64,000 bases of DNA, from the NCBI GenBank assembly GCA_947632545.1, contig CANRPP010000003.1:351-64350 (forward strand), given 5' to 3'. Both the position numbers and the translations under genes were made by a program. Below the pieces are notes generated by a model, which was given only the letters and a program-made list of their open reading frames with translations, made no database searches and was not told where the DNA came from. Within the stretch, counting starts at the first letter, position 1. Every line of letters begins with the position of its first letter. Of the stretch, positions 14,827 to 52,307 are shown piece by piece. This DNA is from an uncultured Bacilli bacterium (GTDB taxonomy: Bacteria > Bacillota_I > Bacilli_A > RF39 > UBA660).

Positions 14827-14832
14827 CTACTT

Positions 14833-16501: not shown

Positions 16502-16598
16502 ATAATCACCTGTTCCTTTTTTACATATAGTATTGTATCAAATATAAGCTTTTTTTTAAATGTTTTTGGCAAAAAAAGTAGATTTTTTATCTACCTTT

Positions 16599-18176: not shown

Positions 18177-18282
18177 AACCTATACCTCTCTTTTTATTCT
18201 TTTATTCTAGTTTATATTATATCATTATATTTTGATTTTGAAAAGAGGAGAAAGAAAAAAAGGCTAATAACCTTTTATCATT

Positions 18283-20791: not shown

Positions 20792-20809
20792 TTAGACCAC
20801 TCCTCTTTT

Positions 20810-22165: not shown

Positions 22166-22210
22166 AATATACCTCCTTTTTTATTTTTATATAATTTTAA
22201 AAAAAGAAGA

Positions 22211-22822
22211 TTAATCTTCTTTTGGTTTTATTACTACTGCTCTATTTGGTTCTTCTCCTACACTTTCTGTATATACATATTTATTATTAGTTAAAGCATT
22301 ATGAATAATTCTTCTTTCATATGAATTCATTGAATCTAATTTTGCTTCAACTTTTGTTTCTTTCACTTCTCTTGCTACTTTTTTAGCTAATCTTTCTAAA
22401 TTTTTTTCTTGTTTTTCTTTATAATTATTTACATCTATTAAAAATTTAAATGATTTTCCTATTTCTTTTTGAATTGCTTGAGAAACTACTTTTGATAGAG
22501 CTTGTAAGTTTTTACCATTTTTTCCTATTAATAAAGAATCATTATCTGAATAAATTATATAAGTGGGAACTTCATTATTTTTTCTTATCTCAATATTAAT
22601 ATTAAAACCCATATCTTTTAATAAACTATAGCAATAATCTTTTATATATTTTACAACTTCTCTTTTTTCTATTACTTCTATTTCTATTTTTTTTGTTTTA
22701 AATAACCCTTGTTTTATTTCTTTTTCATTTATTATTAAATTGGCTTCTGTCTCTTGTAAATCAATTGTTGCATTTTTTATTGCTTCTTCTTTAGTTTTTC
22801 CTATATAACTATGCTTTTCCAT
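22211..22822 (-). CDS. jag: RNA-binding protein Jag/KhpB (Jag_N, KH, R3H)
   Basis: 203 aa. C-terminal R3H block SMNSYERRIIH and a KH-like GKNGKNLQAL. It is adjacent to yidC. Confidence 0.85.
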   Translation of the reverse strand: MEKHSYIGKTKEEAIKNATIDLQETEANLIINEKEIKQGLFKTKKIEIEVIEKREVVKYIKDYCYSLLKDMGFNINIEIRKNNEVPTYIIYSDNDSLLIGKNGKNLQALSKVVSQAIQKEIGKSFKFLIDVNNYKEKQEKNLERLAKKVAREVKETKVEAKLDSMNSYERRIIHNALTNNKYVYTESVGEEPNRAVVIKPKED

Positions 22823-23741
22823 ACTTTTTTTTACTCCTTTTTACTGATAAATTTTGAAATACTGTAAATAAATTAGTTGTTACCCAGTATATTCCAAGTG
22901 CTGAAGGCATAAATAATCCCATTATTATTATCATAACACTCATCATTATTGGCATCATTTTCATACTTGGATCTAATGAATTTCCTGACATATTTAATTT
23001 AAATGATAAAAGTGTTGATAAGGCAATTAATATCATTAATATGATATAAGCTATTATAGTTGAAGTACCAAATCCTATAACTGGAGTTGTTCCAAGTTGT
23101 AATCCTAAAAATTTATCTTCAAAAATTGCAGGAGTTCTTTGTACAGCTTCAAAAAATGCGATAAATAAAGGTAACTGAATCATTGAAAATAAACATCCTG
23201 ACATTGGATTTATATTATATTTTTTATATACTCTCATCATTTCCTGGCTTTGTTTAGTAAGTGATTCTTGATCTTGCTTATCTTTATATTTATTTTGAAT
23301 TCTTGTTAATTCTGGTTGAGCTTGTTTTATCAATTCTGATTGCATTGCTGTTTTTTTGGTAAATGGAAATGCTATCAATCTTATAATTAAACTAATTATT
23401 ATTAATGATACTGCATAATTTCCTATTTTATTTCCTAATAATATAAGGATAAAAGATAATGGTTTTACAAATATTCCTGTCCATAATCCTTCATATTTTC
23501 CACTTGTTATTTTAAAATTTTCACAATCAGGTAATGTTTTAATATCAACCCCATTTTTCTCATATATTTTTATAGTTTCTTTACTTTTTGGTTTGCATAT
23601 TATATTTTGTGTTAAATTTTGACCTGTTACTTCATTTTTCACTGGATTATTTTTCTTATCTGTTAAAGTTTTTGTACAACCTGTTGTTAAAAATAAAGTT
23701 AATACAAGTATTAAAATTAACTTTTTATTTATTTTTTTCAT
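22809..23741 (-). CDS. yidC: membrane protein insertase YidC/SpoIIIJ (lipoprotein type)
   Basis: 310 aa. The lipobox LTTGC and conserved P..L.IQ.PIFIA-like and G..WV..NL blocks. It follows rnpA. Confidence 0.9.
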   Translation of the reverse strand: MKKINKKLILILVLTLFLTTGCTKTLTDKKNNPVKNEVTGQNLTQNIICKPKSKETIKIYEKNGVDIKTLPDCENFKITSGKYEGLWTGIFVKPLSFILILLGNKIGNYAVSLIIISLIIRLIAFPFTKKTAMQSELIKQAQPELTRIQNKYKDKQDQESLTKQSQEMMRVYKKYNINPMSGCLFSMIQLPLFIAFFEAVQRTPAIFEDKFLGLQLGTTPVIGFGTSTIIAYIILMILIALSTLLSFKLNMSGNSLDPSMKMMPIMMSVMIIIMGLFMPSALGIYWVTTNLFTVFQNLSVKRSKKKYGKA

Positions 23742-24074
23742 TTATATCTCCTTTATTTTAAATATTAAATTATCAAAATCTTGGTTTAATTCTTTATATG
23801 TTTTATTTGAACCATATTTTTTTAATATGATTATAAAATCTTGATTCATTTGTTTTATTTTTAGATTATTATCTACTATAGCTCTTATTTTTCTTTTATA
23901 TTTATTTCTAAATACAGCATTACCTAATTTTTTTCCTACTGAAATTCCATATCTACTGTGATTCATATAATTTTTATTATAATATATTGAAAAATATTTA
24001 CTATTTATTTTTTTACCAGAATTAATAATCTTATTAAAATCTTGGTGACTTTTTACTATATTTTTTTTATTCAT
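23742..24074 (-). CDS. rnpA: ribonuclease P protein component
   Basis: 110 aa, basic, with G.SV.KK.G.AV.RN..KR..R. It lies downstream of rpmH. Confidence 0.9.
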   Translation of the reverse strand: MNKKNIVKSHQDFNKIINSGKKINSKYFSIYYNKNYMNHSRYGISVGKKLGNAVFRNKYKRKIRAIVDNNLKIKQMNQDFIIILKKYGSNKTYKELNQDFDNLIFKIKEI

Positions 24075-24125
24075 ATATTACCTCTATTTAAAAATCTAAA
24101 AAAACCACAGTATAAAACTTGTGGA

Positions 24126-24248
24126 TTAATTACATAGTTTTTTACGTCCTTTACGACGACGATTATTTAAAATATTAGTTAGTTTACGAGCAAAGAAACC
24201 ATGCTTTTTAGCTTTTTTACGATTATTTGGTTGATAAGTTCTTTTCAT
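24126..24248 (-). CDS. rpmH: 50S ribosomal protein L34
   Basis: Not in the ORF track (40 aa). The minus strand reads [40 protein letters not shown], with SD GGAGGTGG upstream. A CCACA/TGTGG hairpin plus T-run lies just downstream. Confidence 0.85.
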
Positions 24249-24349
24249 TATTCCACCTCCAGACATAAATCTACATTATTATAATAATAAAATATGGTTT
24301 TTGTCAATTAAATATGGATAATTTTTTATATCAACATTATTAACAACTA

Positions 24350-24468
24350 TGTGGAAAAGAAAAATAACAGTTGTTAAAGAAAATTTGTGGAAAATGTGGA
24401 AAACTTATTTTTTTAGTTTTATTTTAACAAATAATATGTGGAAAATTTTGTTAATTATTTGTGGATAT
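24350..24468. other. oriC upstream DnaA-box cluster (rpmH-dnaA spacer)
   Basis: Five co-oriented boxes. TGTGGAAAA occurs at 24350-58, 24386-94, 24395-03 and 24437-45; TGTGGATAT occurs at 24460-68. Each has 1-2 mismatches to TGTGGATAA. Confidence 0.75.
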
Positions 24469-24552
24469 CATAAATTGTTTTTTTTTAGTTTATTTTTTCG
24501 ACAATTTAATGTAGAATAGAATTAATTACTTATCTTGTGGGGAGATGGTTGT

Positions 24553-25947
24553 ATGAATGTTGATATAATGTGGAACAATTTCCTAAAGCAAATTAAACCT
24601 GATTTATCATCTCTTGCTTTTGATACATGGTTTAGTGATACTAAATTATATGAATTAAAAGATGGTAAAGCTTTTATAATTGTTCCCATGCAAATTCATA
24701 AAAAACATTTAGCAGATAAATATTCTTCTTTAATAATTGAAAAATTAAATAATATTACTGGTACAAATTTTGAATTAGAATTTTTATTAGAAAATGAATT
24801 AGTTAAAGAAAAAAAGTCTGAAAATAAGGAAAATTCTAATATTATACAAGAAAATAGTAGTGGAGTACCTCCTAATTTATTTAATTCTAATTTAAAGAGT
24901 AAATATAGTTTTGAAAATTTTATTGTAGGTAATTCAAATAAATTTGCCCATGCTGCTGCTTTATCAGTAGCGGAAAATCCTGGTAAGATGTATAATCCTT
25001 TATTTATTTACGGAAATAGTGGTCTTGGAAAAACTCATTTAATGCACGCGATTGGAAACTATATAATAGAAAATAGTAATAGAAGAGTTTTATATGTTAC
25101 TAGTGATCAATTTATACAAGATTTTATTGGTATTAATAAGAAAGATGAAAAAGGAACAAACTTTAATTATATAGATTTCTTTAAAAATAAATATAGAAAT
25201 GTCGATGTTTTAATAATTGATGATATTCAGTTTTTAGGTGGCGCTACTCAAACACAACGTGAATTTTTTAATACTTTTACATCTTTATATGATGATAGTA
25301 AACAAATTATTATTTCTTCCGATAGATCACCAAATGACTTAAAATTATTAGAAGATCGTTTAAGAACAAGATTTTGTTGGGGACTAACGGTAAATATATA
25401 TCCACCTGATTTTTCCCTTAGAACTGAAATATTAAAGAAAAAAATTGCGGCTGGAAATTTTGAAAAAGAAATTCCTGAAGATGTAATTGAATATATAGCA
25501 TCTAATATTGGTACTGATGTTAGACAACTTGAAGGCTCCATAACTAGACTTGTTGCTTATTCTACAATAATGGGTGGAGTAGATATTAATCTAGATTTAG
25601 CAATTGAAGCTTTAAAAGATTTTATTAGTAAAGGAATATCTGAAAAAAATGATATTCATAGAATTCAAAAAATAGTTTCTGAATATTTTCAAATTACAGT
25701 TGAAGATATTAGAAGTAAAAAAAGAAGCTCTAACATTTCTTTTCCTAGACAAATAGCTATGTATTTATGTAGAAATATGACTAGTGAATCTTTTCCTAAA
25801 ATAGGAACAGAATTTGGTGGAAAAGATCATTCTACAGTAATGCATTCTGTTGAAAAAATAGAGCAAGAAATAAAAGTAAATAAAGATTTAGAAAAAATTA
25901 TTGAAAAATTAAAACAAGATATTGGAGAAGGAATTGTTAATAAATAA
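24553..25947 (+). CDS. dnaA: chromosomal replication initiator DnaA
   Basis: Start taken at MNVDIMWNNF (ATG at 24553, SD GGAGATGG) rather than the ORF-track TTG at 24535. Walker A GNSGLGKTHL, IDDIQF and the C-terminal DNA-binding block GGKDHSTVMHS. Confidence 0.96.
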   Translation: MNVDIMWNNFLKQIKPDLSSLAFDTWFSDTKLYELKDGKAFIIVPMQIHKKHLADKYSSLIIEKLNNITGTNFELEFLLENELVKEKKSENKENSNIIQENSSGVPPNLFNSNLKSKYSFENFIVGNSNKFAHAAALSVAENPGKMYNPLFIYGNSGLGKTHLMHAIGNYIIENSNRRVLYVTSDQFIQDFIGINKKDEKGTNFNYIDFFKNKYRNVDVLIIDDIQFLGGATQTQREFFNTFTSLYDDSKQIIISSDRSPNDLKLLEDRLRTRFCWGLTVNIYPPDFSLRTEILKKKIAAGNFEKEIPEDVIEYIASNIGTDVRQLEGSITRLVAYSTIMGGVDINLDLAIEALKDFISKGISEKNDIHRIQKIVSEYFQITVEDIRSKKRSSNISFPRQIAMYLCRNMTSESFPKIGTEFGGKDHSTVMHSVEKIEQEIKVNKDLEKIIEKLKQDIGEGIVNK

Positions 25948-25961
25948 AATAAATTACATAT

Positions 25962-26075
25962 TTTTCCACATACAAAAAATAAATTTTATGCTATTATAAT
26001 TAAAATTATTTTAATTATTAACATTTTCCACAGTAATAATATAAATAATATATTTAATAAAAAAGAAAGAAGGAA
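25962..26075. other. oriC downstream part (dnaA-dnaN spacer): DnaA boxes and AT-rich unwinding candidate
   Basis: TTTTCCACA occurs at 25962-70 and 26024-32, in the opposite orientation to the upstream cluster. The second box is followed by GTAATAATATAAATAATAT (TAA/TAT triplets resembling DnaA-trios) and pure A/T sequence. Confidence 0.55.
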
Positions 26076-26080
26076 ATAAA

Positions 26081-27211
26081 ATGAAATTAACAATTAAAAA
26101 AGATATTTTATTAGATGGATTAAATAAGGTTTCTAAAGCCATCTCTACTAAAAATTTAATACCTGTATTATCAGGAATAAAATTTGATCTTAAGAAAAAT
26201 AAACTTATATTAACAGCAAGTGATAATGATATTACTATACAAACAGTTATAATTTCAGAAAAAGATGATGATTTCAAAGTAGAAAAAGAAGGAAGTATTA
26301 TAATTTCTGGTAGATATGTTCTTGATATAGTTAGAAAATTACCAGATGAATATATAAATATAGAAGTAATTGATGAATTAAAAGTACTTATTTATACAGA
26401 AAATAGTGAATTTAATTTAAATGGAATTGATGAAGATGAATATCCAAATATTTCTTTAGATGAATCTAAAAAGAAAATAAGTATAAATAGTAAGGTATTT
26501 AAAGATATAGTTAATCAAACTGCTTTTGCAGCATCTAATGAGGAAACAAAACCTGTTTTAACAGGAATTAATTTTAATATAGTAGGGGATGTATTAGAAT
26601 GTAATTCAACAGATTCTTATCGTTTAGCAAGAAAAATAGTAAATTTAGAAAATAAGGAAAATGAAAATTATAATATAGTAATTCCTAGTCATAATATTTT
26701 AGAATTTGTTAAAATTATAGATGATGATGAAAAAGCTAAAGTAGAATTACATTTATCTAATAATAAAATATTGTTTATATATAAAAATATTAAATTTCAA
26801 TCTAGATTAATAAATGGAACATATCCAAATACATCAAATTTAATGCCAAAGGAAGATTTTCTTGTTATATCAACAAATTTAAATGATATATATAATGTAA
26901 TAGATAGAGCTAGTATACTTACTAGTGATAAAGAAAAAAATATTGTTACTTTAGAAACAGATGGAAATTTATTAACTTTAAAATCATCATCTCAAGAAAT
27001 AGGTAGAGTAGAAGAAAAAATGACTATTAAAAAGAATAATGATGAAAATATAAAAATTTCATTTAGTGCAAAATATATGATGGAAGCATTAAAATCATTT
27101 AATACTGAAAATGTAGAACTTCATTTTGTTGGAGAAATAAAACCTATTTTAGTTAAATCAAGTGAAGATGAAACTTTAACACAATTAGTTTTACCAATTA
27201 GAACATATTAA
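26081..27211 (+). CDS. dnaN: DNA polymerase III beta subunit (sliding clamp)
   Basis: 376 aa. MKLTIKKD.LL..L..V..AIS.K..IP.L.GI and the C-terminal LVLPIRT. It lies immediately after dnaA. Confidence 0.95.
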   Translation: MKLTIKKDILLDGLNKVSKAISTKNLIPVLSGIKFDLKKNKLILTASDNDITIQTVIISEKDDDFKVEKEGSIIISGRYVLDIVRKLPDEYINIEVIDELKVLIYTENSEFNLNGIDEDEYPNISLDESKKKISINSKVFKDIVNQTAFAASNEETKPVLTGINFNIVGDVLECNSTDSYRLARKIVNLENKENENYNIVIPSHNILEFVKIIDDDEKAKVELHLSNNKILFIYKNIKFQSRLINGTYPNTSNLMPKEDFLVISTNLNDIYNVIDRASILTSDKEKNIVTLETDGNLLTLKSSSQEIGRVEEKMTIKKNNDENIKISFSAKYMMEALKSFNTENVELHFVGEIKPILVKSSEDETLTQLVLPIRTY

Positions 27212-27321
27212 CATTATGTTCTTTTTTTTTATTTTTTTCTACAAAATTCATCAAAAAACGACATATGAATGTGATATTATACCACGTGAAAACGAGAAAG
27301 TTTTCATAAGGGGGAAATTTT

Positions 27322-27756
27322 ATGAATTATGAAATTAATGAAGGTACATTAGCAATTTTACCTTCAAAAAAACAAAGTAAGGTATTAGAAGATAAAGAAG
27401 AATATATCATTAATAGTACACCATTTGAAATAATGGATCATAGTTGTAAATATTTTGGTTCTTCCTATGAAGGAAGAAAGGAAGGTACAAAAGCAGTTTT
27501 AGATATTAATTATAAAGTACCTATTATTGTAGAAAATAGTAGAAATATTATATTCTTTCCTACAAATTCTCCTTCTGCAGAAGATTGTAGTTGGATTTCA
27601 TTAAAAAATATAAAAAAAATAGAAGAAGCAGAATATAATTCAACAACAATATTATTTAATAATGATATATCTATTTTAATACCTGTATCTAAAAGAACAA
27701 TAGAAAATCAAATTTTACGAGCATCTAGACTAGATTTAATTATGAGAGATAGATAA
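27322..27756 (+). CDS. ComK family protein (short, 144 aa)
   Basis: YEINEGTLAILP, PFEIMDHSCKYFGSSYEGRKEGT, VPIIVENSRNIIFFPTNSP..DCSWIS and ENQILRAS align block by block with B. subtilis ComK as recalled. SD AAGGGGG. Confidence 0.85.
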   Translation: MNYEINEGTLAILPSKKQSKVLEDKEEYIINSTPFEIMDHSCKYFGSSYEGRKEGTKAVLDINYKVPIIVENSRNIIFFPTNSPSAEDCSWISLKNIKKIEEAEYNSTTILFNNDISILIPVSKRTIENQILRASRLDLIMRDR

Positions 27757-27761
27757 TAAAG

Positions 27762-27785
27762 AAAAAGTCATTAGTGACTTTTTTT
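27762..27785 (+). terminator. intrinsic terminator after the comK-family gene
   Basis: 9-bp stem AAAAAGTCA/TGACTTTTT with the 4-nt loop TTAG, running into a T-run. Confidence 0.6.
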
Positions 27786-27882
27786 AGTGCATAAACACTT
27801 AATTTATGATATAATATTATTGTATGTATAGGAATACTGATATAGGGTGTAGGTGATTATATGAAGAAATATAGTATCAAAA

Positions 27883-28995
27883 ATGATTATTAAGAATATA
27901 AAATTGTCTAATTTTAGAAATTATTCTCATTTGAATGTTAATTTTAATGAGAAGATGAATATATTTATAGGAAAAAATGCTCAAGGAAAAACAAATATAT
28001 TAGAAAGTATTTGTGTTCTCGCTCTTACAAAAACATATAAAAATGGAGTAGAACCTAATTTAATATCTTTTAATAAAAAAAAGGCATTAATAAAGGGTAG
28101 TGTAAAAGATACAAAATTAACTAATAAATTAGAAATATGTATAGAAGAAGGTAATAAAACATTAAAAATAAATAATAATGAAATAAGAAAAATTAGTGAA
28201 TATATTTCTAATTTAAATATTATAGTATTTTCTCCTGAAGATTTAGAAATAATAAAGGGATCACCTAATGTAAGAAGAAATCTTATAAATATGCAATTAT
28301 CTCAAATATCTATTAAATATTTAAATACATACAATGAATATAATAAAATATTAAAAATAAGAAATGAATATTTAAAATTATTATTAACATCTTCTATAGC
28401 AGATAAAAATTATTTGGATATTATTACTGAAAAATTAATAGAAAAAGCTATAATAATATATCAAGAGAGAAAAAAATATTTAGACTTTATTAATAAAAAT
28501 ATAAATTCTATATATAAAAAAATAACTGGAGAAGAAAAACTTTCAATTATATATGAAACAAATATAGATATAGAAGATTTTTCTACTGAAAATATATATA
28601 ATGTTATAAAAGATAAATTTAATAAAGAATATAGAAAGGAATTAAATTATGGAATGACATTATATGGTCCGCATAGAGATGATTTTATTTTTTCATTGAA
28701 TGGGAAAAATTTAAAATATTTTGGTTCACAAGGACAACAAAAAATATCTATATTGTCCTTTAAATTATCTGAAATTGATATATTTTTAGAATATAGAAAT
28801 ACAAAACCTGTATTATTATTAGATGATATTTTTAGTGAACTTGATATAAATAAAAGAAATAAATTATTAGAATTTATAAATACTGATATTCAAAGTATTA
28901 TTACTACAACAGATTTAAAAAATATAAAATCAAAGTATACAAAAGATGCATATATATATCAAATAAATAATGGAAATATAGAAAGAAGGCAATAA
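27883..28995 (+). CDS. recF: DNA replication and repair protein RecF
   Basis: 370 aa. The N-terminus L.NFRNY and Walker A GKNAQGKTNILE align from Met1 with Bacillus RecF. The signature block is SQGQQK. Confidence 0.95.
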   Translation: MIIKNIKLSNFRNYSHLNVNFNEKMNIFIGKNAQGKTNILESICVLALTKTYKNGVEPNLISFNKKKALIKGSVKDTKLTNKLEICIEEGNKTLKINNNEIRKISEYISNLNIIVFSPEDLEIIKGSPNVRRNLINMQLSQISIKYLNTYNEYNKILKIRNEYLKLLLTSSIADKNYLDIITEKLIEKAIIIYQERKKYLDFINKNINSIYKKITGEEKLSIIYETNIDIEDFSTENIYNVIKDKFNKEYRKELNYGMTLYGPHRDDFIFSLNGKNLKYFGSQGQQKISILSFKLSEIDIFLEYRNTKPVLLLDDIFSELDINKRNKLLEFINTDIQSIITTTDLKNIKSKYTKDAYIYQINNGNIERRQ

Positions 28996-28998
28996 AAA

Positions 28999-30924
28999 AT
29001 GACAGAAATGAAAGAAAAAGAGTATGATTCATCATCAATTCAAGTATTAGAAGGATTAGAGGCCGTAAGAAAACGTCCAGGAATGTATATAGGAACTACT
29101 TCATCTAGAGGATTACATCATTTAGTTTGGGAAATAGTAGATAATGCGATAGACGAGGCTTTAGCAGGATATTGTACACATATTGAAGTAAGTATTGGAA
29201 CAGAAAATACAATAACTGTAAAAGATGATGGACGTGGTATACCTGTTGATAAACATCCAAAAACTGGTAAAAGTACAGTAGAAACTGTATATACAGTATT
29301 ACATGCTGGTGGTAAATTCGGTGGAGGAGGATATAAAGTATCTGGTGGACTTCATGGAGTAGGTGCTAGTGTTGTTAATGCATTAAGTAGTTGGTTAGAA
29401 GTAAAAGTTTATAAAAATGGTAATGTATATTATCAAAGATATGAAAATGGAGGACATCCAGTAGATGATTTAAAAATAATAGATTCTTGTTCTAAAGAAA
29501 GAACAGGAACTACAGTTACTTTTAAACCAGATCCAGAAGTATTTACAGATACAATAGTATATGATTATGAAATATTAAAAACACGTATTCGTGAATTAGC
29601 GTTTTTAAATAAAGGATTAAAAATATCTTTATATGACGAAAGAGAAGATGATAAGAAAGATTCTTTTTGTTATGAAGGTGGAATTAGTGAATATGTAAAA
29701 ATGATCAATGAAAATAAAAATCCTATTCATGAAACAATAATAGATTGTGCAGGTGTTGATAATGATATTTCATTAGAAGTTGCCTTACAATATAATGAAA
29801 CATATAATGCTAGTATATATTCTTTTGTTAATAATATAAATACTCCAGAAGGTGGAACACATGAAGATGGAGTTAAAAGAGCTTTAACTAGAATATTAAA
29901 TAAATATGCTACTAGTAGTGGAATGTTAAAGGATAAAGATTCTAATTTAACTGGAGATGATGTTAAAGAAGGAATAACTATGATTATTTCAGTTAAACAT
30001 CCAAATCCTCAATTTGAAGGTCAAACTAAAACAAAATTAGGAAATAGTGAAGTTAGAGGTATTGCTGATAAAATATTTTCAGCATCCTTTGAAAGATTTT
30101 TAATGGAAAATCCAGATCAAGCAAAGGTTATTGTAGAAAAAAGTATGACTGCATCACGTGCTAGAGTAGCTGCTAAAAAAGCTAGAGAATTAACAAGACG
30201 TAAAGGTGATTTAGATGTAACTAATTTCTATGGAAAATTATCTGATTGTAAGAGTAAAGATCCTAGTGAATGTGAAATATTTTTAGTCGAAGGTGATTCA
30301 GCAGGAGGTTCTGCTATAAAAGGTCGTAATAGTATGACTCAAGCAATACTTCCATTAAGAGGTAAAATTTTAAATGTAGAAAAAGCACGTCTTGATAGAG
30401 CGCTATCTAATGAAGAAATAAAAACAATTATTACGGCATTTGGAACTGGAATTGGCGAAGACTTCGATTTATCAAAATTACGTTATGATAAGATTATAAT
30501 AATGACAGATGCAGATGTTGATGGTTCACATATAAGAGTTTTATTATTAACACTTTTCTATAGATTTTTTAAACCAATTGTTGAAGCAGGTCATGTATAT
30601 GCGGCACAACCGCCATTATTTGTTATAAAACATGGTAAAAATATTAAGTATGTATTAAATGAGCAAGAAAGAGATGAATACTTAAAAACATTATCTCCAA
30701 ATACAAAATATGATATTATGCGTATGAAAGGTTTAGGAGAAATGGATGCAGAAGAATTAAATGAAACAACTATGGATATAGAAAAAAGAGTATTACGACA
30801 AATAACAGTAGAGGATACAATGGCTGCAGATGATGTATTTTCAAAATTAATGGGTGAAGAAGTTGAACCTAGAAGATCATTTATAGAAGAAAATGCAGTA
30901 TATGTTGAGAATTTGGATATTTAG
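28999..30924 (+). CDS. gyrB: DNA gyrase subunit B
   Basis: 641 aa with [41 protein letters not shown] and [12 protein letters not shown]. Confidence 0.97.
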
Positions 30925-30936
30925 GAGGTAAGGATA

Positions 30937-33402
30937 ATGGATAGATTAGAACAAAATAATATAGTTAATGAAGTTAAAGATTCTTTTTTGGAATATTCAA
31001 TGAGTGTAATAGTTGCACGTGCCTTACCGGATTTAAGAGATGGATTAAAGCCAGTTCATAGACGTATTTTATATTCTATGTATGAATCAGGTTATACACC
31101 AGATAAACCTCATAAAAAGAGTGCTAGAATAGTAGGGGATGTAATGGGTAAATATCATCCTCATGGAGATTCTAGTATATATGAAGCAATGGTTAGAATG
31201 GCACAAGATTTTTCATATCGTAATATGTTAGTAGATGGTCATGGTAACTTTGGTAATATAGAAGGATATGGAGCAGCAGCAATGCGTTATACTGAATCAC
31301 GTCTTTCTAAAATTTCATTGCAATTATTAAGAGATATTAATAAAGATACAGTAGATTTTACTCCAAACTTCGATGAAAGTGAAAAAGAGCCTGTTATATT
31401 ACCTTCAAGATTTCCTAATATATTAGTAAATGGAACAATGGGAATTGCTGTTGGTATGGCTACTAATATACCACCACATAATTTAGGAGAGGTAATAGAT
31501 GGTTGTATTGCATATATTGATAATCCAGATATAGATTTAGATGGATTAATGCAATATATTAAAGGACCTGATTTTCCAACAGGAGCAACTATTTTAGGTA
31601 ATAGTGGTATTAGAAAAGCCTATGAAACAGGTAAAGGAACTATTACTATTAGAAGTAAAGCTAGGATAGAAGAAGAAAAAGGAAAGCACTATATAATTGT
31701 TGATGAAGTTCCATATGGAGTTAATACATTAGAATTAAAAAATAAAGTAGCGGATTTAGTACATAATAAAGTAATAGATGGAATAAGTGATTATCATACA
31801 GATTTAAAAGATGGAATAAAAATTACTATTACTTTAAAAAAAGATGCAAATCCACAAGTAGTATTAAATAATTTATATAAGCATACAGCTTTTCAAACAA
31901 GTTATGGTATAACATTTTTAATGCTTGATCAAGGAGTACCTAAAACTTTAGGATTAAAAGATATAATATCAAAATATATTGATTATCAAAAAGAAATAAT
32001 AATAAGGAGAACAAGATTTGATTTAAATAAAGATGAAGCACGAGCACATATTTTAGAAGGGTTAAAAATAGCATTAGATCACATTGATGAAATTATTAAA
32101 TTAATAAGAGGCTCTAAAAGTGATGAAATTGCAATGAATGGTTTAATGTCAAATTATTCATTAACTGAAAAACAAGCTCAAGCAATTCTTGAAATGAAAT
32201 TAAGAAGATTAACTGGATTAGAAAGAGATAAAATTGAGAATGAATTAAAAGAATTATTAGAAGAAATTGAAAAATTAAAAGGTATTTTAGCAAGTGAAGC
32301 TAAAGTATTAGAAATAATAAAAGAAGAAATGTTTGAAATAAAAGCAAAATTTGCTGATGAGAGACGTACAAATATTGATATGACTGCTATTGAATATATT
32401 GAAGATGAATCTCTAATACCTGTTGAAGATATAATAATAACTCTAACAAATAAAGGCTATATTAAACGTTTAAAATCAGACACTTATAGATCTCAAAATA
32501 GAGGTGGTGTTGGTATTAAAGGTATGACAACTAATGAAGAAGATATAGTAGAACACTTGTTATCAACAAAAACACATGATTATATATTATTCTTCTCTAA
32601 TAAGGGTAGAGTTTATAGATTAAAAGGTTATGAAATACCAGAATTTGGCAGACAATCTAAAGGTTTACCAATTGTAAATTTACTATCTCTTGATAAAGAT
32701 GAAAACATACGTTCTATAATATCTGTTGATGGCAAAGAAGAAAATTCTAAATATTTATTATTTACAACTAAAAAAGGACTTGTAAAAAGAACAGAAATTA
32801 AAGAATTTGATAGTATTAGAAAAGGTGGAAAAATAGCTATTCTTCTAAAAGAAGAAGATGAATTAATTTCTGTTAAAAAGACTAGCGGACAAGATGAAAT
32901 AGTAATTGGTGCAAATAATGGTAGAATGGTTAGATTTATAGAAACTGAAATAAGATCTATGGGTAGAAATACTTCAGGAGTAAAAGGAATAGATTTAGGA
33001 GATGCTATAGTAGTTGGAAGTGAAGTATTACAACCAGACCAATTAATATTAATAGTTACTGAAAAAGGTTATGGTAAACAATCACCAATTGAAGAATATA
33101 GATTGACTCATAGAGGAAGTAAAGGTGTTAAAGCACTAAATATAACAGAAAAAAATGGAATGATGGTAGCATTAAAATGTGTGGATAAAAATAAAATAGA
33201 ATCAAATGATATAATGATTATAACTGATAGTGGAATAATTATGAGAATGCCTTTATCACAAATTTCTATTTTAAAAAGAGCAACACAAGGAGTTAGGTTA
33301 ATTAATTTAAAAGAAAAACAAACAGTATCTACAATAGCAATTGTAGAAAAAGAAGATATTGAGGAAGATGAACCAACTGAAATACCTGAAAATGTAGCAT
33401 AA
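30937..33402 (+). CDS. gyrA: DNA gyrase subunit A
   Basis: 821 aa with [36 protein letters not shown] and the active-site tyrosine block [10 protein letters not shown]. Confidence 0.97.
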
Positions 33403-44029: not shown

Positions 44030-44076
44030 TAAAGGATTGTTATTCTTTATATAGTTGGTATGTGGAGGTAATAATT

Positions 44077-44769
44077 ATGAGCATTAGTGTAGACAATAAT
44101 GATATGTTAAATAAATTAATATTACAACATCAAAATAATTATAAGTCTACAGTAATTGAGATAATAAAAAACAATACTTTATCATTAATAGAAGAGGATA
44201 TTATTTCCCTTATAAAGAAACCACCATTAGCATCAATGGATTTGCTAGAGCAAAAATTGTTATTTTTAGCTAAGAGAGAAAATTTAGTTTTAAATTATGA
44301 AATACTAACAAAACTATTATCGGATTATAGAGAAAAACTTATTGATAATATTAGAAAATTAAAAGAGTTTAGAAATGATAGTTTAATAAAAAAAGTAGAA
44401 GAGTTTAACCCTAAAAGAGATTTAGATATTATATGTATTGAGACGAATATGCTTGATGCTATAGATAAAAATATTAAGAAAAAAATAAAATCTAATATAT
44501 TAAAGTTTAATAATGATATATTATTAAAAAATATAGATAATATATATAAAAATGATATTAATATAAAAATAAAACAAAAGATTGCAACAGATTTTGAAAA
44601 ATATATTAAAACTACTTATCAAAAACAACTTCTTGAAAGCATTTCAATAAAAATAATGATAAAAGATAGAACCTTAATTAGTAGGATTAATGAACAAGGA
44701 GAAAGATATTTATTTACAAAGTCAAATTCCCATATTTTTGTAGATGAAGATATGAATACTACGTGTTAG
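44077..44769 (+). CDS. hypothetical protein, soluble and probably helical
   Basis: Start at the ATG at 44077 (SD GGAGG 8 nt upstream). 230 aa, K/N/I/L-rich, with no hydrophobic segment and no motif I recognise. Confidence 0.55.
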   Translation: MSISVDNNDMLNKLILQHQNNYKSTVIEIIKNNTLSLIEEDIISLIKKPPLASMDLLEQKLLFLAKRENLVLNYEILTKLLSDYREKLIDNIRKLKEFRNDSLIKKVEEFNPKRDLDIICIETNMLDAIDKNIKKKIKSNILKFNNDILLKNIDNIYKNDINIKIKQKIATDFEKYIKTTYQKQLLESISIKIMIKDRTLISRINEQGERYLFTKSNSHIFVDEDMNTTC

Positions 44770-47372: not shown

Positions 47373-47543
47373 ATGCCAAAGAAAATGAAGAAGTGGTTTA
47401 ATTTAGATAGTTTTTATTTCTTAATGCTATTTATTTTTACTATATTTATCATTAATAAATTTAACTATCTAGATATAGCATATTTTTCGCTGATAACAGT
47501 TTATTATATTAGAATAAAGTTACATCAGAAGAAAAAAATTTAA
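47373..47543 (+). CDS. small hydrophobic protein (56 aa), function unknown
   Basis: Below the ORF-track size cutoff. SD AAAGGAGA lies 7 nt before ATG. It reads MPKKMKKWFNLDSFYFLMLFIFTIFIINKFNYLDIAYFSLITVYYIRIKLHQKKKI, and a hairpin plus T-run follows directly. Confidence 0.45.
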   Translation: MPKKMKKWFNLDSFYFLMLFIFTIFIINKFNYLDIAYFSLITVYYIRIKLHQKKKI

Positions 47544-47597: not shown

Positions 47598-48356
47598 ATG
47601 TATATAGATACTCATTGTCATTTATCAAAAGAATATTATGATGATATTAATAAAGTTATAGAAGAAAATAAGCTTAATAATATTGATAAAATGATTGTTT
47701 CTGGTTGTGAAAAAAATAGTATTAGAGAAGTAATTGATATAATAAATAAATATGATTTAGTCTACGCTACTATTGGTTATCATCCAGATCAAATAAATAT
47801 AGTTACAGATAAAGATATAGAGGATTTGGAAGAAGTAATAAAATCAAATCAAAAAATAGTTGGAATAGGAGAAATAGGGTTAGATTATCACTATGATAGT
47901 AATAATAAAACCGCTCAAAAAAAATTATTTGAAAAACAATTGAAATTAGCAGAAAAATTATCTTTACCAGTTGTAATTCATAGCAGGGATGCTACAAAAG
48001 ATACAATTGATATATTAAAAAAATATAGACTTAAAGGAATAATTCACTGTTTTTCAGGTAGTTTAGAAACTGCTAATATATACATTAAAATGGGTTATAA
48101 ACTTGGAATAGGAGGAGTATTAACTTTTAAAAATAGTAAATTACATGAAGTGGTGGAGAATATTTCTTTAAAAGACATAGTATTAGAAACAGATAGTCCA
48201 TATTTAACACCAGAACCATATAGAGGTAAAATAAATTCATCAAAATATATTCCAGTAATCGCAGAAAAAATAGCCAATATAAAACATATTTCATTAAAAG
48301 AAGTATCAGAATTAACAAATAAAAACTGCTATGAATTGTTTGACTTAGATAGATAA
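47598..48356 (+). CDS. tatD: TatD family metal-dependent DNase/hydrolase (YabD)
   Basis: Start at MYIDTHCHL (ATG at 47598, SD AGGAGTGA), not the ORF-track TTG at 47550. Has IGEIGLDY, VIHSRDA, IHCFSG and ETDSPYL. Confidence 0.92.
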   Translation: MYIDTHCHLSKEYYDDINKVIEENKLNNIDKMIVSGCEKNSIREVIDIINKYDLVYATIGYHPDQINIVTDKDIEDLEEVIKSNQKIVGIGEIGLDYHYDSNNKTAQKKLFEKQLKLAEKLSLPVVIHSRDATKDTIDILKKYRLKGIIHCFSGSLETANIYIKMGYKLGIGGVLTFKNSKLHEVVENISLKDIVLETDSPYLTPEPYRGKINSSKYIPVIAEKIANIKHISLKEVSELTNKNCYELFDLDR

Positions 48357-48426
48357 AAATGGTACTATTTAACTATAATAGTATGATATTACTAATATAT
48401 GTTACCAAATAACAGGAGATGATTAT

Positions 48427-49059
48427 ATGAAAGACTCTAAAGAAACAGGTGTTGTTTATTCTAGAAAAATATTATTCATGTTATTATTGGTTACATTATT
48501 AGTTGTAGTAGTTATTAGTTTTTCTTTTGCTGTTTATATGAATGGAGAAGAAGGAGTAAATAATACTATTGAATATGGAGATATATCAATGAAGTACATA
48601 GAAAAAGAAAATAGTATTTCAATTGATAATGCTATGCCTACTAGTGATGATGTAGGTATGAAACAATTTGGTAAAAACGAATATTTTGATTTTACAGTTA
48701 ATTCAAGAATAGTAGGAAATGTAAAAATAGAATATGAGATAGCTGCTAGTAAAAACAAAGATTCAACAATCCCAGATAATGAAATAAAATTATATTTAGA
48801 AAAAGAAAAAAATGGTACATATGTTAAAGTAGCTGATCCTAAAAATTATATACCAGAAGATAAACAAACAGAAATAGGAACTCCTGCAGGAGATATGCTA
48901 CTATATAAAGTAGAAAAGATAAAAAAATCAACTGATGATAATAGTGTAGAATACGTCGATAATTATCGTTTAAGAATGTGGCTAGATGAGAATGCTACTA
49001 TGTCTGATGTAAGAAAATTTAGTGTTACTGTTAATGTATATGGGAAAACTAAAAAATAA
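48427..49059 (+). CDS. exported protein, TasA/camelysin-like candidate (paralogue 1 of the SipW cluster)
   Basis: 210 aa. A basic N-terminus plus one hydrophobic helix ending SFSFAVY, then NNTIEYGDISMKY..ENSISIDNAMPTSD. It is beta-rich and paralogous to 49080-49694. Confidence 0.6.
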   Translation: MKDSKETGVVYSRKILFMLLLVTLLVVVVISFSFAVYMNGEEGVNNTIEYGDISMKYIEKENSISIDNAMPTSDDVGMKQFGKNEYFDFTVNSRIVGNVKIEYEIAASKNKDSTIPDNEIKLYLEKEKNGTYVKVADPKNYIPEDKQTEIGTPAGDMLLYKVEKIKKSTDDNSVEYVDNYRLRMWLDENATMSDVRKFSVTVNVYGKTKK

Positions 49060-49079
49060 TAATATTGGAGGATATTTCT

Positions 49080-49694
49080 ATGACTAATACCGATTCAAAA
49101 AATATATTGTTATCAGTTATTGGTGTTGCTATATTGTTAGTTGCTGTAGTCGGAATATCATATGCTATATTTGTTTTTGCTAAAAAAGGTGATACTCTTA
49201 ATACTATCTCAACAGGTAAGATATCTATGCTTTATACAGAAAGTGATAATACAATTTCAATAAATAATGCTACTCCTATATCTGATTCAGTTGGAAAAAT
49301 TCAAAATGAGTATTTTGATTTCACTGCAGCAGCAGAAATAAAAGGTAAAGTCTCTATTAGCTATGAAGTAAGAGCGGTAAGAACAGATACTAATGAAGCA
49401 AATAGATTACCTGATGAAGCTGTAAATTTATATTTAGAAAAAAAAGATTCTTCAAAATATGTTTCAGTCATGGAACCTACTCCATTTAAAAAAACTCAAA
49501 ACTCTACTTTAGATAATGTTTATGTTAATAAAGATAGTATGTTATTATATAAAGGACTTATAGTAAGTAATAATGAAACTTCAGTTAAAGAAGACTTTAG
49601 ATTAAGAATATGGCTTAATGATAAACAAAAGTTAGATGATACTCAAAAAATATATAAATTAAGAGTAGATATATACTCCAGCTTAAATAAATAA
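49080..49694 (+). CDS. exported protein, TasA/camelysin-like candidate (paralogue 2)
   Basis: Start at the ATG at 49080 (SD GGAGGA 7 nt upstream). The hydrophobic helix ends GISYAIF, then LNTISTGKISMLYTESDNTISINNATPISD. It shares EYFDFT, LYLEK, MLLYK and RLR.WL blocks with paralogue 1. Confidence 0.6.
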   Translation: MTNTDSKNILLSVIGVAILLVAVVGISYAIFVFAKKGDTLNTISTGKISMLYTESDNTISINNATPISDSVGKIQNEYFDFTAAAEIKGKVSISYEVRAVRTDTNEANRLPDEAVNLYLEKKDSSKYVSVMEPTPFKKTQNSTLDNVYVNKDSMLLYKGLIVSNNETSVKEDFRLRIWLNDKQKLDDTQKIYKLRVDIYSSLNK

Positions 49695-49699
49695 TAAAT

Positions 49700-49721
49700 A
49701 AGGAACAAGATTCCTTTTTTA
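49700..49721 (+). terminator. hairpin and T-run after paralogue 2 (possible partial terminator inside the cluster)
   Basis: 6-bp stem AAGGAA/TTCCTT with the 5-nt loop CAAGA, followed by TTTTT. Confidence 0.5.
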
Positions 49722-49774
49722 GTGCAATTTTATATATTTCATGTTATTATAATATATATAGTAGGATAATAGAG

Positions 49775-50581
49775 GTGAAAATAGTGGATACAGTTTTAGA
49801 ACAAATAAATGAACAAGAAAAACAAAAAAAAGAAAAACTAAATAAAGTTAAAGTCATTTATAATATTTATCATTTCATTACAAAAGTAATTTTATATTCT
49901 ATATTAATGATTTTAATTATAGCAGCAATCTTTTTTGTTTTGTATTTTGTTGATATGCAATACAATATAAAAAAAGGTACATATAAACAACCTCTTTTTG
50001 GAGCCTATATAATAATAAGTCCAAGTATGGTACCTACTATTAATGTTTACGATGCAATAGTTATAAAAAGAACTGAAGCCAAAGAACTAAAAGAAGATGA
50101 TATTATAACCTTTTTATCGAGTGATTCTAGATATAGTGGTCTTACTATTACACATAGAATTACAGGTATAGAAAAATCACAAAATGGGGAATACTTATTT
50201 AGAACTAAAGGCGATAATAATAATTCAGAAGATTCTGCATTAGTAAAAGAATCTGATATATATGGAAAAGTAATTTTAAAAATACCTAAAATAGGATATC
50301 TCCAACAGATTTTAACAAATTCTTTCGGTTGGATATTATTAATTGTAATACCTTGTATGGGTGTTGTTATATATGACATAATTAAAATATTTAAATCTCT
50401 AGCAAGAATTGGTACATCAAAAATAAAGAAAAAAAATGAATTTGCTAATTATCGTGATAACTATATAGAAACAATTAGTCAACAGGAAAAGACAAATGAT
50501 AGTGAAGTTTCTAGTAATGATTTATCAGCTATAGAAAATAATATAGATAATGATAATGATGATGACATAGACTACTTATAA
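49775..50581 (+). CDS. sipW: signal peptidase I, SipW-like (ER/archaeal type, S26B) with an acidic C-terminal tail
   Basis: 268 aa with the boxes ISPSMVPT (Ser), LTITHRI (His) and TKGDNNNSEDS. TM helices lie before and after the catalytic domain. The start may be the GTG at 49784 (SD GAGGTGA). Confidence 0.85.
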   Translation: MKIVDTVLEQINEQEKQKKEKLNKVKVIYNIYHFITKVILYSILMILIIAAIFFVLYFVDMQYNIKKGTYKQPLFGAYIIISPSMVPTINVYDAIVIKRTEAKELKEDDIITFLSSDSRYSGLTITHRITGIEKSQNGEYLFRTKGDNNNSEDSALVKESDIYGKVILKIPKIGYLQQILTNSFGWILLIVIPCMGVVIYDIIKIFKSLARIGTSKIKKKNEFANYRDNYIETISQQEKTNDSEVSSNDLSAIENNIDNDNDDDIDYL

Positions 50582-50601
50582 TTTACTATGCGGAGGATAC
50601 C

Positions 50602-51114
50602 ATGAATAAAAAAAATATATGTATAATAGTTATTGGTATAATTATCATTTTACTTTTAATATATTACAGTAATAGAATTATTAATAATAATTCATCAAGA
50701 GTAAATAAAATTAAAATTGTTGAAAATAATGTGGGAGAAAAAGAAGACTTTATAAATTATGGTTCTATAAATGATGATGAAATTGCAAAAATAAAACCAT
50801 TTAAATTTTCAGTAATAAATAAAGAAAGTAATAATTCTAAATATAATCTTTTAATAGAAGATATAGTTGATAATGAAAAAGAAGAATTAATTTTAAGTAG
50901 AAAATATTTACATTATGAATTATCTTTAAATAATAATGTTATAAAAAAGGGAATTTTATCTGATATAAAAAATAATATTATAGATACTAGAACTATTAAA
51001 AAAAATAAAACAAATAATTATTCACTAAAGATTTGGGTAAGTTTAAATGATTCAGAAATAGATTTGGAACATAAATATTATAGTTATAATATTGTTGCTA
51101 TACCGATAGAGTAA
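50602..51114 (+). CDS. N-terminally anchored or exported protein, divergent short paralogue 3 of the cluster
   Basis: 170 aa with SD GGAGGA. One N-terminal hydrophobic helix. The C-terminal NYSLKIWVSLND...YYSYNIVA parallels NYRLRMWLDENA...FSVTVNVY in paralogue 1. Confidence 0.55.
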   Translation: MNKKNICIIVIGIIIILLLIYYSNRIINNNSSRVNKIKIVENNVGEKEDFINYGSINDDEIAKIKPFKFSVINKESNNSKYNLLIEDIVDNEKEELILSRKYLHYELSLNNNVIKKGILSDIKNNIIDTRTIKKNKTNNYSLKIWVSLNDSEIDLEHKYYSYNIVAIPIE

Positions 51115-51128
51115 AAGGTGGTGAAACT

Positions 51129-51818
51129 ATGAAAAATATAGTTATTGAATATTTTAATATATTAGCCTATATAATAACAGGTATAGTCTTTTCTATCGCA
51201 TCATTTTTAATAATAATTAATATTTATCATTATAAAAATGTTAATGAAGTATATAAAACTCAAGATAGTAATTATGAAATAAAAGATAATTTAAAATACA
51301 AATTAGATAATATAAAATCAAATATAAATAATTTACCTTCTTCAACTAATCCAAACTTCATAGCGTATTCAAAAATTCAAACAAAATTAAATATTTGTTA
51401 TGAAAAGATAGATATAGAACAATTTGATAAATTATTAACAAAAACTGATATATCAATAAGTGATGTATATAATATGCAACAATTTTATAAACTTAATATT
51501 GCAAATGAATGTCTAATCAAGCAATTATATACACTAGTAGATGATGAGGATAATTCTATTAATAATCTAGCGTCTTTCAATCTAGTAAAACCTTTTATTA
51601 AAAATAATATAGATCAATTAAAAGAATCATCTGATTATATAGAAAAAGTAATTAAAAGTAATAGTAGTTATAAATTTACCAATGATTTTACTAAATCTAG
51701 TATATATGATGAAGTTAAAGATAGTTATTATAAAATAATAAATGATTATAATAATTCAATAGACTTTATATATGATATATCTATATGGTATAAGAATGAA
51801 GTAGGTGAAAATACATGA
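51129..51818 (+). CDS. N-terminally anchored protein, function unknown
   Basis: 229 aa with SD AAGGTGGTGA. A single TM helix near the N-terminus is followed by a polar N/K/D/Y-rich domain. No motif recognised. Confidence 0.55.
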   Translation: MKNIVIEYFNILAYIITGIVFSIASFLIIINIYHYKNVNEVYKTQDSNYEIKDNLKYKLDNIKSNINNLPSSTNPNFIAYSKIQTKLNICYEKIDIEQFDKLLTKTDISISDVYNMQQFYKLNIANECLIKQLYTLVDDEDNSINNLASFNLVKPFIKNNIDQLKESSDYIEKVIKSNSSYKFTNDFTKSSIYDEVKDSYYKIINDYNNSIDFIYDISIWYKNEVGENT

Positions 51819-52264
51819 AAAAAATAATAAATTATAGTTTACTATTTTTAAAGTATCTGTTATATTTAGGTGCTTTTGCTATTTCACTTTATATTATTAC
51901 TATTATAAATCAAAAGCAAAATAGAAATATTACGGAATTAATAACTGCTATATTACCATATATTTTATTATTAATAGTATTTTTTATTAATATTATATTA
52001 AGACAAAAAAATATAAATCATAATATATTTTATAACTTAACATGTTGTATTGCATTTTTAACTACTATAATTGTGGGATTAAGATCAATATATGATACAA
52101 ATATGATTTTAAATCAAATAACCGGTTATAATATAAACTTTATATATTTTAATGACTATCTAGTATATATGAAAATATTAATATATGGTTTAATTATAAG
52201 TAATTTATGTTTCATGTTTAAAAATAAAAAATCAGATGTTAAAAAGGAAACAGAAGTTTTATAG
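51815..52264 (+). CDS. small polytopic membrane protein (about four TM segments), function unknown
   Basis: 149 aa. Its start overlaps the preceding stop (ATGA), implying translational coupling. Confidence 0.55.
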   Translation: MKKIINYSLLFLKYLLYLGAFAISLYIITIINQKQNRNITELITAILPYILLLIVFFINIILRQKNINHNIFYNLTCCIAFLTTIIVGLRSIYDTNMILNQITGYNINFIYFNDYLVYMKILIYGLIISNLCFMFKNKKSDVKKETEVL

Positions 52265-52280
52265 ACTTCTATTTTTTTTT
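52252..52280 (+). terminator. intrinsic terminator closing the SipW cluster
   Basis: Stem AGAAGT/ACTTCT with a 7-nt loop spanning the stop codon, followed by ATTTTTTTTT. Confidence 0.6.
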
Positions 52281-52307
52281 GTTATATAATCTAGGAAAGG
52301 TGATTAT

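Follow-up and report, generated by a model that had tools for sequence, protein, structure and literature searches.

A window of 64,000 nucleotides from an uncultured Bacilli bacterium (contig CANRPP010000003.1, positions 351 to 64,350 of the forward strand; by "the window" we mean this whole stretch) carries a cluster of six genes between tatD and rsmA. The cluster encodes a signal peptidase of the archaeal/endoplasmic reticulum (ER) type, three paralogous proteins (A1, A2, and A3), and two orphan membrane proteins (M1 and M2). With a probability of roughly 55%, we think that the cluster is a dedicated export and processing system for a new TasA-style surface fiber or display system, distinct from TasA itself. 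The observations that carry this reading are the type of the peptidase, the A family with the size and predicted fold of its members, a cleavage-type motif in these proteins, the homology of A3 to A1 and A2, and strict synteny across related species. That the subunits are cut, that they polymerize, and what A3, M1, and M2 do is what we infer from them. An earlier note on this DNA, made from the letters alone, had described the locus as a SipW-type signal peptidase cluster with three divergent TasA-like paralogues; much of that description survives, some of it does not.

Results

The signal peptidase

We assign the product of the third gene (49775–50581, plus strand, 268 amino acids [aa]) to the archaeal/ER-type signal peptidases I because it scores 96.1 bits against TIGR02228, the model for this type (curated cutoff 51.85), because its predicted catalytic residues Ser84 (SPSM), His127 (THR), Asp147, and Asp153 (KGDNxxxxD) are invariant in 58 out of 58 homologs from related loci, and because human SEC11A and SEC11C, with which it aligns (E about 2e-6), are its sole relatives with a solved structure. 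The three boxes by which the earlier note had recognized such an enzyme (ISPSMVPT, ITHRI, and TKGDNNNSEDS) are all found, flanked by hydrophobic helices at residues 38–56 and 187–205, and that identification stands. Against the equivalog model of Bacillus SipW (NF046067) the protein scores 97.1 bits, which is below the cutoff of 190.

The enzyme shares its Ser-His-Asp catalytic residues and the order of its boxes with SEC11 and archaeal signal peptidase I. Unlike SEC11, it is bacterial, has two transmembrane helices, is encoded beside its probable substrates, and has no recognizable SPCS-type partners. Across relatives the length of the peptidase varies from 197 to 314 aa, the differences being N- and C-terminal tails outside both transmembrane helices. 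The enzyme of the window ends in a strongly acidic C-terminal tail (…NDSEVSSNDLSAIENNIDNDNDDDIDYL, within 50380–50581). The SipW of B. subtilis, at 190 aa, has no room for such an acidic tail. The GTG start at 49775 is part of the GAGGTG that would serve this gene for ribosome binding; a GTG in the same frame, at 49784, is better spaced, and the peptidase may be three residues shorter.

The A family

The first two genes of the cluster encode A1 (48427–49059, plus strand, 210 aa), a predicted exported beta-sandwich subunit, and its paralogue A2 (49080–49694, plus strand, 204 aa counted from its ATG; the start at 49080 is backed by identical public contigs). The two are 37% identical. They have in common the blocks GDISMKYIEKENSISIDNAMPTSDDVG in A1 and GKISMLYTESDNTISINNATPISDSVG in A2, NEYFDFT, LYLEK, MLLYK, and YRLRMWL in A1 or FRLRIWL in A2, and their hydrophobic helices end in ISFSFAVY and GISYAIF, respectively. 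Each of the blocks on which they had been called clear paralogues is present.

The family to which they belong is large. A search of a collection of 5.8 billion proteins with A1 gave 274 matches of about 200–220 aa, none of which has a Pfam domain or a name. When we compared a profile of the mature domain with 1.84 billion cluster representatives, at least 1,562 clusters (at 50% identity) matched at E ≤ 0.001 and 878 at E ≤ 1e-10, and the domain was nearly always found at residues 40–200 of the matching protein. The members begin with a basic N-terminus and one helix, followed by a predicted beta-sandwich. Judged by these searches, the A family is a large, unannotated family of exported proteins, with no name on any member examined.

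The AlphaFold2 (AF2) model of A1 has a mean predicted local distance difference test score (pLDDT) of 83. It consists of a helix (residues 7–39), a stretch of low confidence (residues 40–49), and a confidently predicted all-beta domain. Pfam and NCBIfam scans covered the A, M1, and M2 families as wholes besides the six proteins of the window. Among the identities proposed for the six proteins only that of the peptidase is meaningful; weak matches to Head_binding, DUF4446, SAG1386/EF1546, FliL, and DivIC are driven by helices or composition and were rejected.

Signal peptides and the predicted cleavage site

The predicted signal peptide of A1 comprises residues 1–35 (48427–48531), with a predicted cut after residue 35 (SFA↓VY, the arrow marking the cut). 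In A2, the predicted cut follows residue 29 (SYA↓IF). Both signal peptides have the normal tripartite layout of a basic, a hydrophobic, and a small-residue part. We derived motif statistics from 184 distinct family members in 80 related loci. The pattern [GASTC]-[FYW]-[GASTC]-x-[FYW] stands at the end of the hydrophobic helix in 137 of them, and the consensus reads LVVAVVG(I/V)S(F/Y)A↓(A/I/V/T)F(T/S)Y(S/T)KxG...N.I.TG.I.M.Y. Most members that do not match have relaxed variants, such as GISVA↓TF or IVGA↓AF.

SipW cuts TasA at VGGGTWA↓AF, and the aromatic P2 and P2' residues of this site have been linked to its inefficient cleavage by LepB, a peptidase of the bacterial type (PMC10269814). The TasA fiber structure 8AUR starts at AFNDIKSKDATFASGTLDLS, and mature TasA in fibers begins with AFND. 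The predicted site of the A family mirrors the TasA site GTWA↓AF, in which a small residue, an aromatic residue, and Ala are followed by an aromatic P2'. The idea of a SipW-type site at the end of the N-terminal helix is supported for A1 and A2: the −3 and −1 positions are canonical, and P2 and P2' are aromatic as in TasA. The enzyme that cuts A1 and A2 would presumably be the adjacent peptidase.

The third paralogue

The fourth gene encodes A3 (50602–51114, plus strand, 170 aa). It had been thought to keep only the C-terminal block of its two paralogues, which turned out to be wrong. An hhalign comparison of an alignment of 26 A3 homologs with the A family gave a probability of 97.8% (E = 8.8e-13), and because this match spans 166 columns, the whole length of the protein, we regard A3 by homology as a full-length, if divergent, member of the A family.

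In most of the 26 homologs, the position equivalent to P1 is occupied by Leu, Met, Ile, Val, or Phe, followed by W-Y. Inspection of the sequences of the window's A3 and its nearest relatives found no −3/−1 cleavage site after the N-terminal helix. Since there is no usable cleavage site, A3 is probably retained in the membrane, which would make it a candidate anchor or nucleator. TapA acts in this way for TasA (PMC9674648). The earlier statement that the cluster has no TapA-like gene therefore needs qualifying, since A3, without a usable cleavage site, could take the role of anchor or nucleator. Unlike TapA, this candidate anchor would be a membrane-retained paralogue of the subunits.

The two orphan membrane proteins

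M1 (51129–51818, plus strand) belongs to an orphan family. It has an N-terminal transmembrane helix, after which about 190 aa are predicted to fold into an all-alpha bundle (AF2 model, pLDDT 76); Foldseek found no match to the model below E = 0.45. None of its 36 database homologs is named, and all but one are without a Pfam domain; two cysteines, C90 and C128, are invariant. M2 (51815–52264, plus strand), a small protein, has four transmembrane segments according to hydropathy and alignment, and its invariant polar residues are N59, N70, F72-Y73-N74, R90, and D94. The family-wide scan gave no consistent Pfam model (DUF5305 included) for either family.

In the fetched loci M1 and M2 are always found together and always downstream of the peptidase gene. 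With just 36 unnamed homologs of M1, and both genes tied to peptidase loci, they are not widespread housekeeping membrane proteins, in keeping with the earlier interpretation. Strict linkage is the one line of evidence that points to a role for them in the cluster.

A conserved locus in uncultured gut Bacilli

Six open reading frames (ORFs) on the same strand fill the interval between tatD and rsmA, and we verified their coordinates against the ORF list of the window. Independent gene calls on identical public contigs gave the same lengths (210, 204, 268, 170, and 229 aa). Every gene is preceded by a ribosome-binding site of the AGGAG, GGAGG, or GAGGTG type, and M1 and M2 overlap by ATGA at 51815–51818. 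According to hydropathy, A1, A2, A3, and M1 have a single helix each, whereas the peptidase has two and M2 has four. The genes, the motif blocks, the overlap, and the hairpins (see below) of the earlier description were thus all located as claimed.

A scan of GTDB with one genome per species found 79 loci, all of them from uncultured gut Bacilli of rabbit, mouse, human, ruminants, and chicken (labeled "Bacilli bacterium," "Tenericutes," Candidatus Onthousia, or Clostridium sp. CAG:451). All 45 complete tatD–rsmA intervals contain one to five A genes directly upstream of a peptidase gene. M1 and M2 occur in 35 intervals, each time as a pair; A3 occurs in 25, all of which have M1 and M2 as well; and the remaining arrangement, found in 10, consists of A genes and the peptidase gene only. 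The exact order of the window (A-A-peptidase-A3-M1-M2) is common to eight of the 45 intervals, the window counted. An arrangement that recurs in 45 out of 45 complete intervals from different species-level genomes is well beyond chance, and the suggestion that the six genes form a conserved unit in relatives is upheld by this strict synteny.

Two loci deserve separate mention. One (L070, 6141–9563) contains a second A-A-A-peptidase cluster whose peptidase is 38% identical to that of the window. There is no tatD or rsmA within the fetched locus. This second cluster suggests that the module is able to duplicate or move. In another (L024, 4235–4780), a tandem A paralogue appears to lie in fragments and is probably a pseudogene or the result of an assembly frameshift.

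Dispersed long paralogues

Not all members of the A family are short. In a census of 146 newly listed cluster representatives (P0157–P0302), 45 are 330–1743 aa long, and 44 of these 45 carry the N-terminal motif. Their C-terminal modules are Big_2, Flg_new (the Listeria-Bacteroides repeat), DUF6273, and similar extracellular modules. None of the 45 has a C-terminal hydrophobic segment, and the loose LPXTG-like pattern seen in one of them was taken as chance. If the long paralogues are cut at their N-terminus, the A domain is their only common way to stay on the cell, which argues that the A domain mediates attachment, either by co-polymerization or by binding.

Some genomes have eight or more long A-family genes scattered on the chromosome. 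Seven to nine or more dispersed A-family genes per genome are found in CANQYK (Lapin-015__bin28; loci L074–L081), JAZUAY (L059–L066, L070, L072, L077, and L082), and CANQWY (L028, L029, L054, L058, L064, and L069); they are mostly 490–905 aa long, carry Big_2 or other C-terminal domains, and are remote from signal peptidase genes. A further locus (L085, 10001–25232) encodes an A-family protein of 1,743 aa with Flg_new repeats, followed by three small unannotated genes and murG-murB-ftsQ-ftsA-ftsZ. The genes at this locus show that peptidoglycan synthesis and division are encoded in the clade, even though some of the metagenome-assembled genomes are labeled "Tenericutes."

Expression signals

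A terminator-like hairpin tends to follow the major subunit genes. In 41% of 56 distinct related loci, the last A gene is followed by a hairpin with a T-run and a free energy of −6 kcal/mol or lower; random windows of the same length, which served as control, are positive in 8%, a five-fold enrichment in the loci. The window's own hairpin 3' of A2, a possible attenuator that we located with a custom hairpin search (49700–49720, plus strand; AAGGAA-CAAGA-TTCCTT followed by TTTT), is weak, with a 6-bp stem and −3.5 kcal/mol. Although this is so, the enrichment across relatives supports the idea of attenuation after the major subunits, as had been proposed. The hairpin that closes the cluster (52246–52276, with its T-run 52246–52285, plus strand) is stronger, though still weak, at −7.1 kcal/mol, and a permissive search found similar elements 3' of M2 in 40 of 44 related loci. 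A consensus terminator scan, which requires at least three G-C pairs, reported neither hairpin of the window.

One or more candidate promoters of the sigma-70 type lie 5' of A1 (48340–48379, plus strand). A consensus scan picked out TTGACT-N17-TACTAT with an upstream TG, and also a TATAAT at 48374–48379. The same scan returned 69 promoter-like matches in the region and 62 in shuffled sequence and is therefore uninformative in DNA of 25% G+C. The G+C content of the cluster region is 18–28%, that of the window 24.6%.

Genomic neighborhood

The cluster lies about 24 kb from dnaA, on the strand of positive GC skew. Positions 14800–33400 of the window are the region of the chromosomal replication origin, with rnpA, yidC, jag, mnmE, mnmG, rsmG, noc, parA, and parB on the minus strand and dnaA (24535–25947), dnaN, recF, gyrB, and gyrA on the plus strand; these names come from reading the ORF translations, with no family search. 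Two further ORFs of the window are conserved in relatives. A hydrophobic ORF of 56 aa between metG and tatD (47373–47543) is conserved in 26 related loci according to tblastn, and its counterpart in locus L001 is annotated as a gene of 62 aa. An ORF of 235 aa between mfd and spoVT (44062–44769), which has no Pfam domain, is conserved in 42 related loci.

Discussion

How could the cluster build a surface structure? A1 and A2 would enter the membrane by way of their long, conserved Sec-type signal peptide, and the adjacent ER/archaeal-type peptidase would cut them after the small residue, the aromatic residue, and Ala (SFA↓VY and SYA↓IF), so that some 175 aa would remain as the mature protein. 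At its N-terminus, about 15 residues would form a flexible extension ahead of the beta-sandwich domain. In the AF2 model of A1, the low-confidence residues 40–49 past the predicted cut are compatible with an N-terminal donor strand, although they are no proof of one. The mature subunits would then link up via the domain that they share, each most likely lending its N-terminal strand to the next, to form a fiber or a surface array. A3, which would have the same fold and remain uncut, may stay in the membrane as the anchor or nucleator of the structure, and M1 and M2 may be membrane proteins that assist either the peptidase or the assembly. The dispersed long paralogues, which combine the same N-terminal module with Ig-like or Listeria-Bacteroides repeats, could be displayed by joining the assembly.

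A more far-reaching version of this reading is that the A domain is a previously unrecognized, sortase-independent means of surface display in widespread uncultured gut Bacilli, in which the proteins would all insert, by way of their shared N-terminal beta-sandwich, into a single membrane-anchored polymer that is nucleated by the uncleaved A3 and assisted by M1 and M2. We put this forward tentatively; it is possible, but we would not bet on it.

Several findings weigh against a dedicated TasA-style system, most of them concerning TasA itself. Peptidase_M73 (PF12389), which all true TasA homologs carry, matches none of 35 A-family members at E ≤ 10 and none of the window's proteins at E ≤ 1, and the model of SipW-cognate signal peptides (TIGR04088) matches none of the 35 at E ≤ 10 either. 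Profile-based searches of the PDB with two A-family alignments returned nothing significant. TasA, AbpA, and other donor-strand filament proteins are not among the top 50 matches of a Foldseek search of the PDB with the A1 model. We also built a TasA-family alignment from real homologs and compared the profiles in two hhalign runs. Only columns 8–69 of the A family aligned, with residues 3–65 of TasA, at P = 6.3e-4 and a probability of 28% (P = 0.047 with a less diverse alignment), and beyond the first 60 columns hhalign found no similarity to TasA. In this register, the cleavage motifs, a first strand with G-T-[LI]-x-[LM], and an N-x-x-P turn fall together. The match is suggestive only and no proof because the hydrophobic signal region adds to the score. 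Apart from TasA, the A proteins of the minimal clusters (those 10 of the 45 intervals with A genes and peptidase only) have a degenerate cleavage motif, and the peptidase gene lies in a universally conserved housekeeping region near the origin, so that its product could be a general signal peptidase.

Because no hidden Markov model, no PDB profile, and none of the top 50 Foldseek matches connects them with TasA, the A proteins, as far as such comparisons reach, are not members of the TasA/camelysin family, where the earlier note had placed them. The label "TasA-like" is an interpretation that can be kept for the signal and cleavage module alone. The likeness to TasA and camelysin on which that interpretation depended is half lost: no model matches, and the 60 N-terminal columns align.

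The A proteins could also be cleaved and make up a nonpolymeric coat, in which the A domain is a noncovalent module that binds the wall or a glycan, like SLH or CWB2. We consider this unlikely, yet it is the alternative that we take most seriously. A shared N-terminal module in front of variable domains, with no other anchor, is typical of wall-binding families, and the clade does have peptidoglycan genes. The Foldseek matches of the A1 model also fit. They are all generic jellyroll or sandwich folds, which count for a fiber subunit as well, and the best of them are carbohydrate-binding or lectin sandwiches (CBM61, CBM22, CBM32, and concanavalin A), besides IBDV VP2 and TNF. However, these matches are weak, with E-values of about 5e-5 to 2e-3, TM scores of 0.2–0.35, and root-mean-square deviations above 8 Å. 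A wall-binding coat would also leave unexplained why short subunits of 165–175 aa with no passenger domain occur in tandem, why one paralogue is membrane-anchored, and why there is a TasA-like N-terminal extension.

It is less probable still, and in our view quite improbable, that the A proteins are never cut. They would then be signal-anchor proteins with the A domain as a membrane-proximal stalk, and the peptidase would be the general one of reduced genomes. The position of the cluster among core housekeeping genes, about 24 kb from dnaA and in every relative examined, would suit such an enzyme. Neither A3 nor the A proteins of the minimal clusters have a clean cleavage site, and the hydrophobic segment of the family is long (16–19 residues) and unusually conserved. 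Yet the signal peptides of TasA-type proteins are equally conserved, 74% of the members have small −3 and −1 residues exactly at the end of the helix, and the aromatic P2/P2' pattern is that of a known SipW substrate. The A genes, moreover, are always found directly 5' of the peptidase gene.

Given neighbors such as spoVT, yabG, spoVG, and yabP/yabQ, one could also argue for a sporulation-specific version, in which the product is a spore appendage or an outer spore layer and not a vegetative fiber. TasA itself was first described as spore-associated (PMC9674648), which counts in favor of this idea. The earlier note had held a spore-surface role to be as plausible as a biofilm role. We do not follow it here and regard such a role as very unlikely, since the neighborhood from which it was derived is the ordinary origin-proximal gene order of Bacillota, in which these genes are mixed with metG, tatD, rsmA, tilS, and ftsH. 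The only promoter-like sites found are of the sigma-70 type, and they are statistically uninformative.

That the A proteins are type IV pilin-like subunits, which would retain their helix as the core of the filament, in the manner of archaeal pili, and depend on machinery encoded elsewhere, can be largely rejected: the model is lollipop-shaped, with a long N-terminal helix and a beta domain, and there are weak profile matches to the helix and first strands of the archaeal pilins 6NAV and 8TIB, but these matches are nonsignificant (E = 0.2–0.4) and owe their score to the hydrophobic helix, the N-termini (...SKQILLSV...) lack a class III/prepilin motif (no G/A at −1 before the helix and no Glu5), and the cluster contains no ATPase, platform protein, or prepilin peptidase and has a serine signal peptidase I instead.

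We therefore return to the reading that we prefer, a dedicated export and processing system for a TasA-style fiber or display system, and ask how it compares with known ones. The closest are tapA-sipW-tasA of B. subtilis and sipW-calY/tasA of B. cereus. There, too, the gene of an ER/archaeal-type peptidase lies beside those of exported beta-sandwich substrates. With these operons the cluster further shares a long, conserved signal peptide that ends in a small residue, an aromatic residue, and Ala, followed by any residue and an aromatic one; a short N-terminal extension before the core; and more than one type of subunit, including a candidate anchor or nucleator. The differences are as clear. 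The subunits match neither Peptidase_M73 nor the model of SipW-cognate signal peptides and have no detectable similarity to TasA past 60 residues. The peptidase falls short of the cutoff of the SipW equivalog model and, unlike Bacillus SipW, carries long tails on the cytoplasmic side. There are two extra orphan membrane proteins, and many dispersed paralogues are fused to adhesin-type repeats. Finally, the locus is a fixed, clade-wide core locus, in contrast to the SinR-regulated accessory operon of Bacillus.

The comparison can be extended to the TasA superfamily of archaea and bacteria (AbpX, AbpA, Tafi, the Saci_0406 threads, and CanA). In its loci, a TIGR02228 peptidase is encoded together with major and minor subunits, tip proteins that carry various additional domains, an anchor in the membrane, and accessory membrane proteins, and its mature subunits of about 160 aa have an N-terminal donor extension that is unstructured in predictions of the monomer (bioRxiv 10.64898/2026.01.04.697558). 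The cluster follows this plan: a TIGR02228 peptidase is accompanied by minor, anchor, and accessory genes, as far as the candidate roles given above apply, and the predicted mature subunits (about 160–175 aa in the two groups together) again begin with an extension that is unstructured in the monomer model. Unlike in the superfamily, the accessory proteins are not DUF5305 proteins, and we found no sequence link to AbpX, AbpA, Tafi, Saci_0406, or CanA.

The pairing of an ER-type signal peptidase and the beta-sandwich surface subunits that it serves is thus a kind of system that is already known. In the literature that we searched, we found no description of this subunit family or its adhesin-fused members, of the probably membrane-retained paralogue, of the M1/M2 pair, or of the fixed locus common to the clade.

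SipW/TasA-type fibers are the main protein scaffold of Bacillus biofilms and have recently come to be seen as one branch of a donor-strand filament superfamily that crosses domains. If our reading is true, then this superfamily would gain a large bacterial branch that carries no annotation and comprises at least 1,562 clusters (50% identity). The branch would belong to uncultured Bacilli that commonly inhabit the intestine of humans, mice, rabbits, ruminants, and chickens, and it would bring with it accessory and adhesin-fused proteins of its own. If confirmed, the system would provide a second natural class of substrates with which to understand why sites with aromatic P2 and P2' residues need ER-type signal peptidases. 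It would also explain how bacteria with small genomes display proteins on their surface and attach to their host or to food particles.

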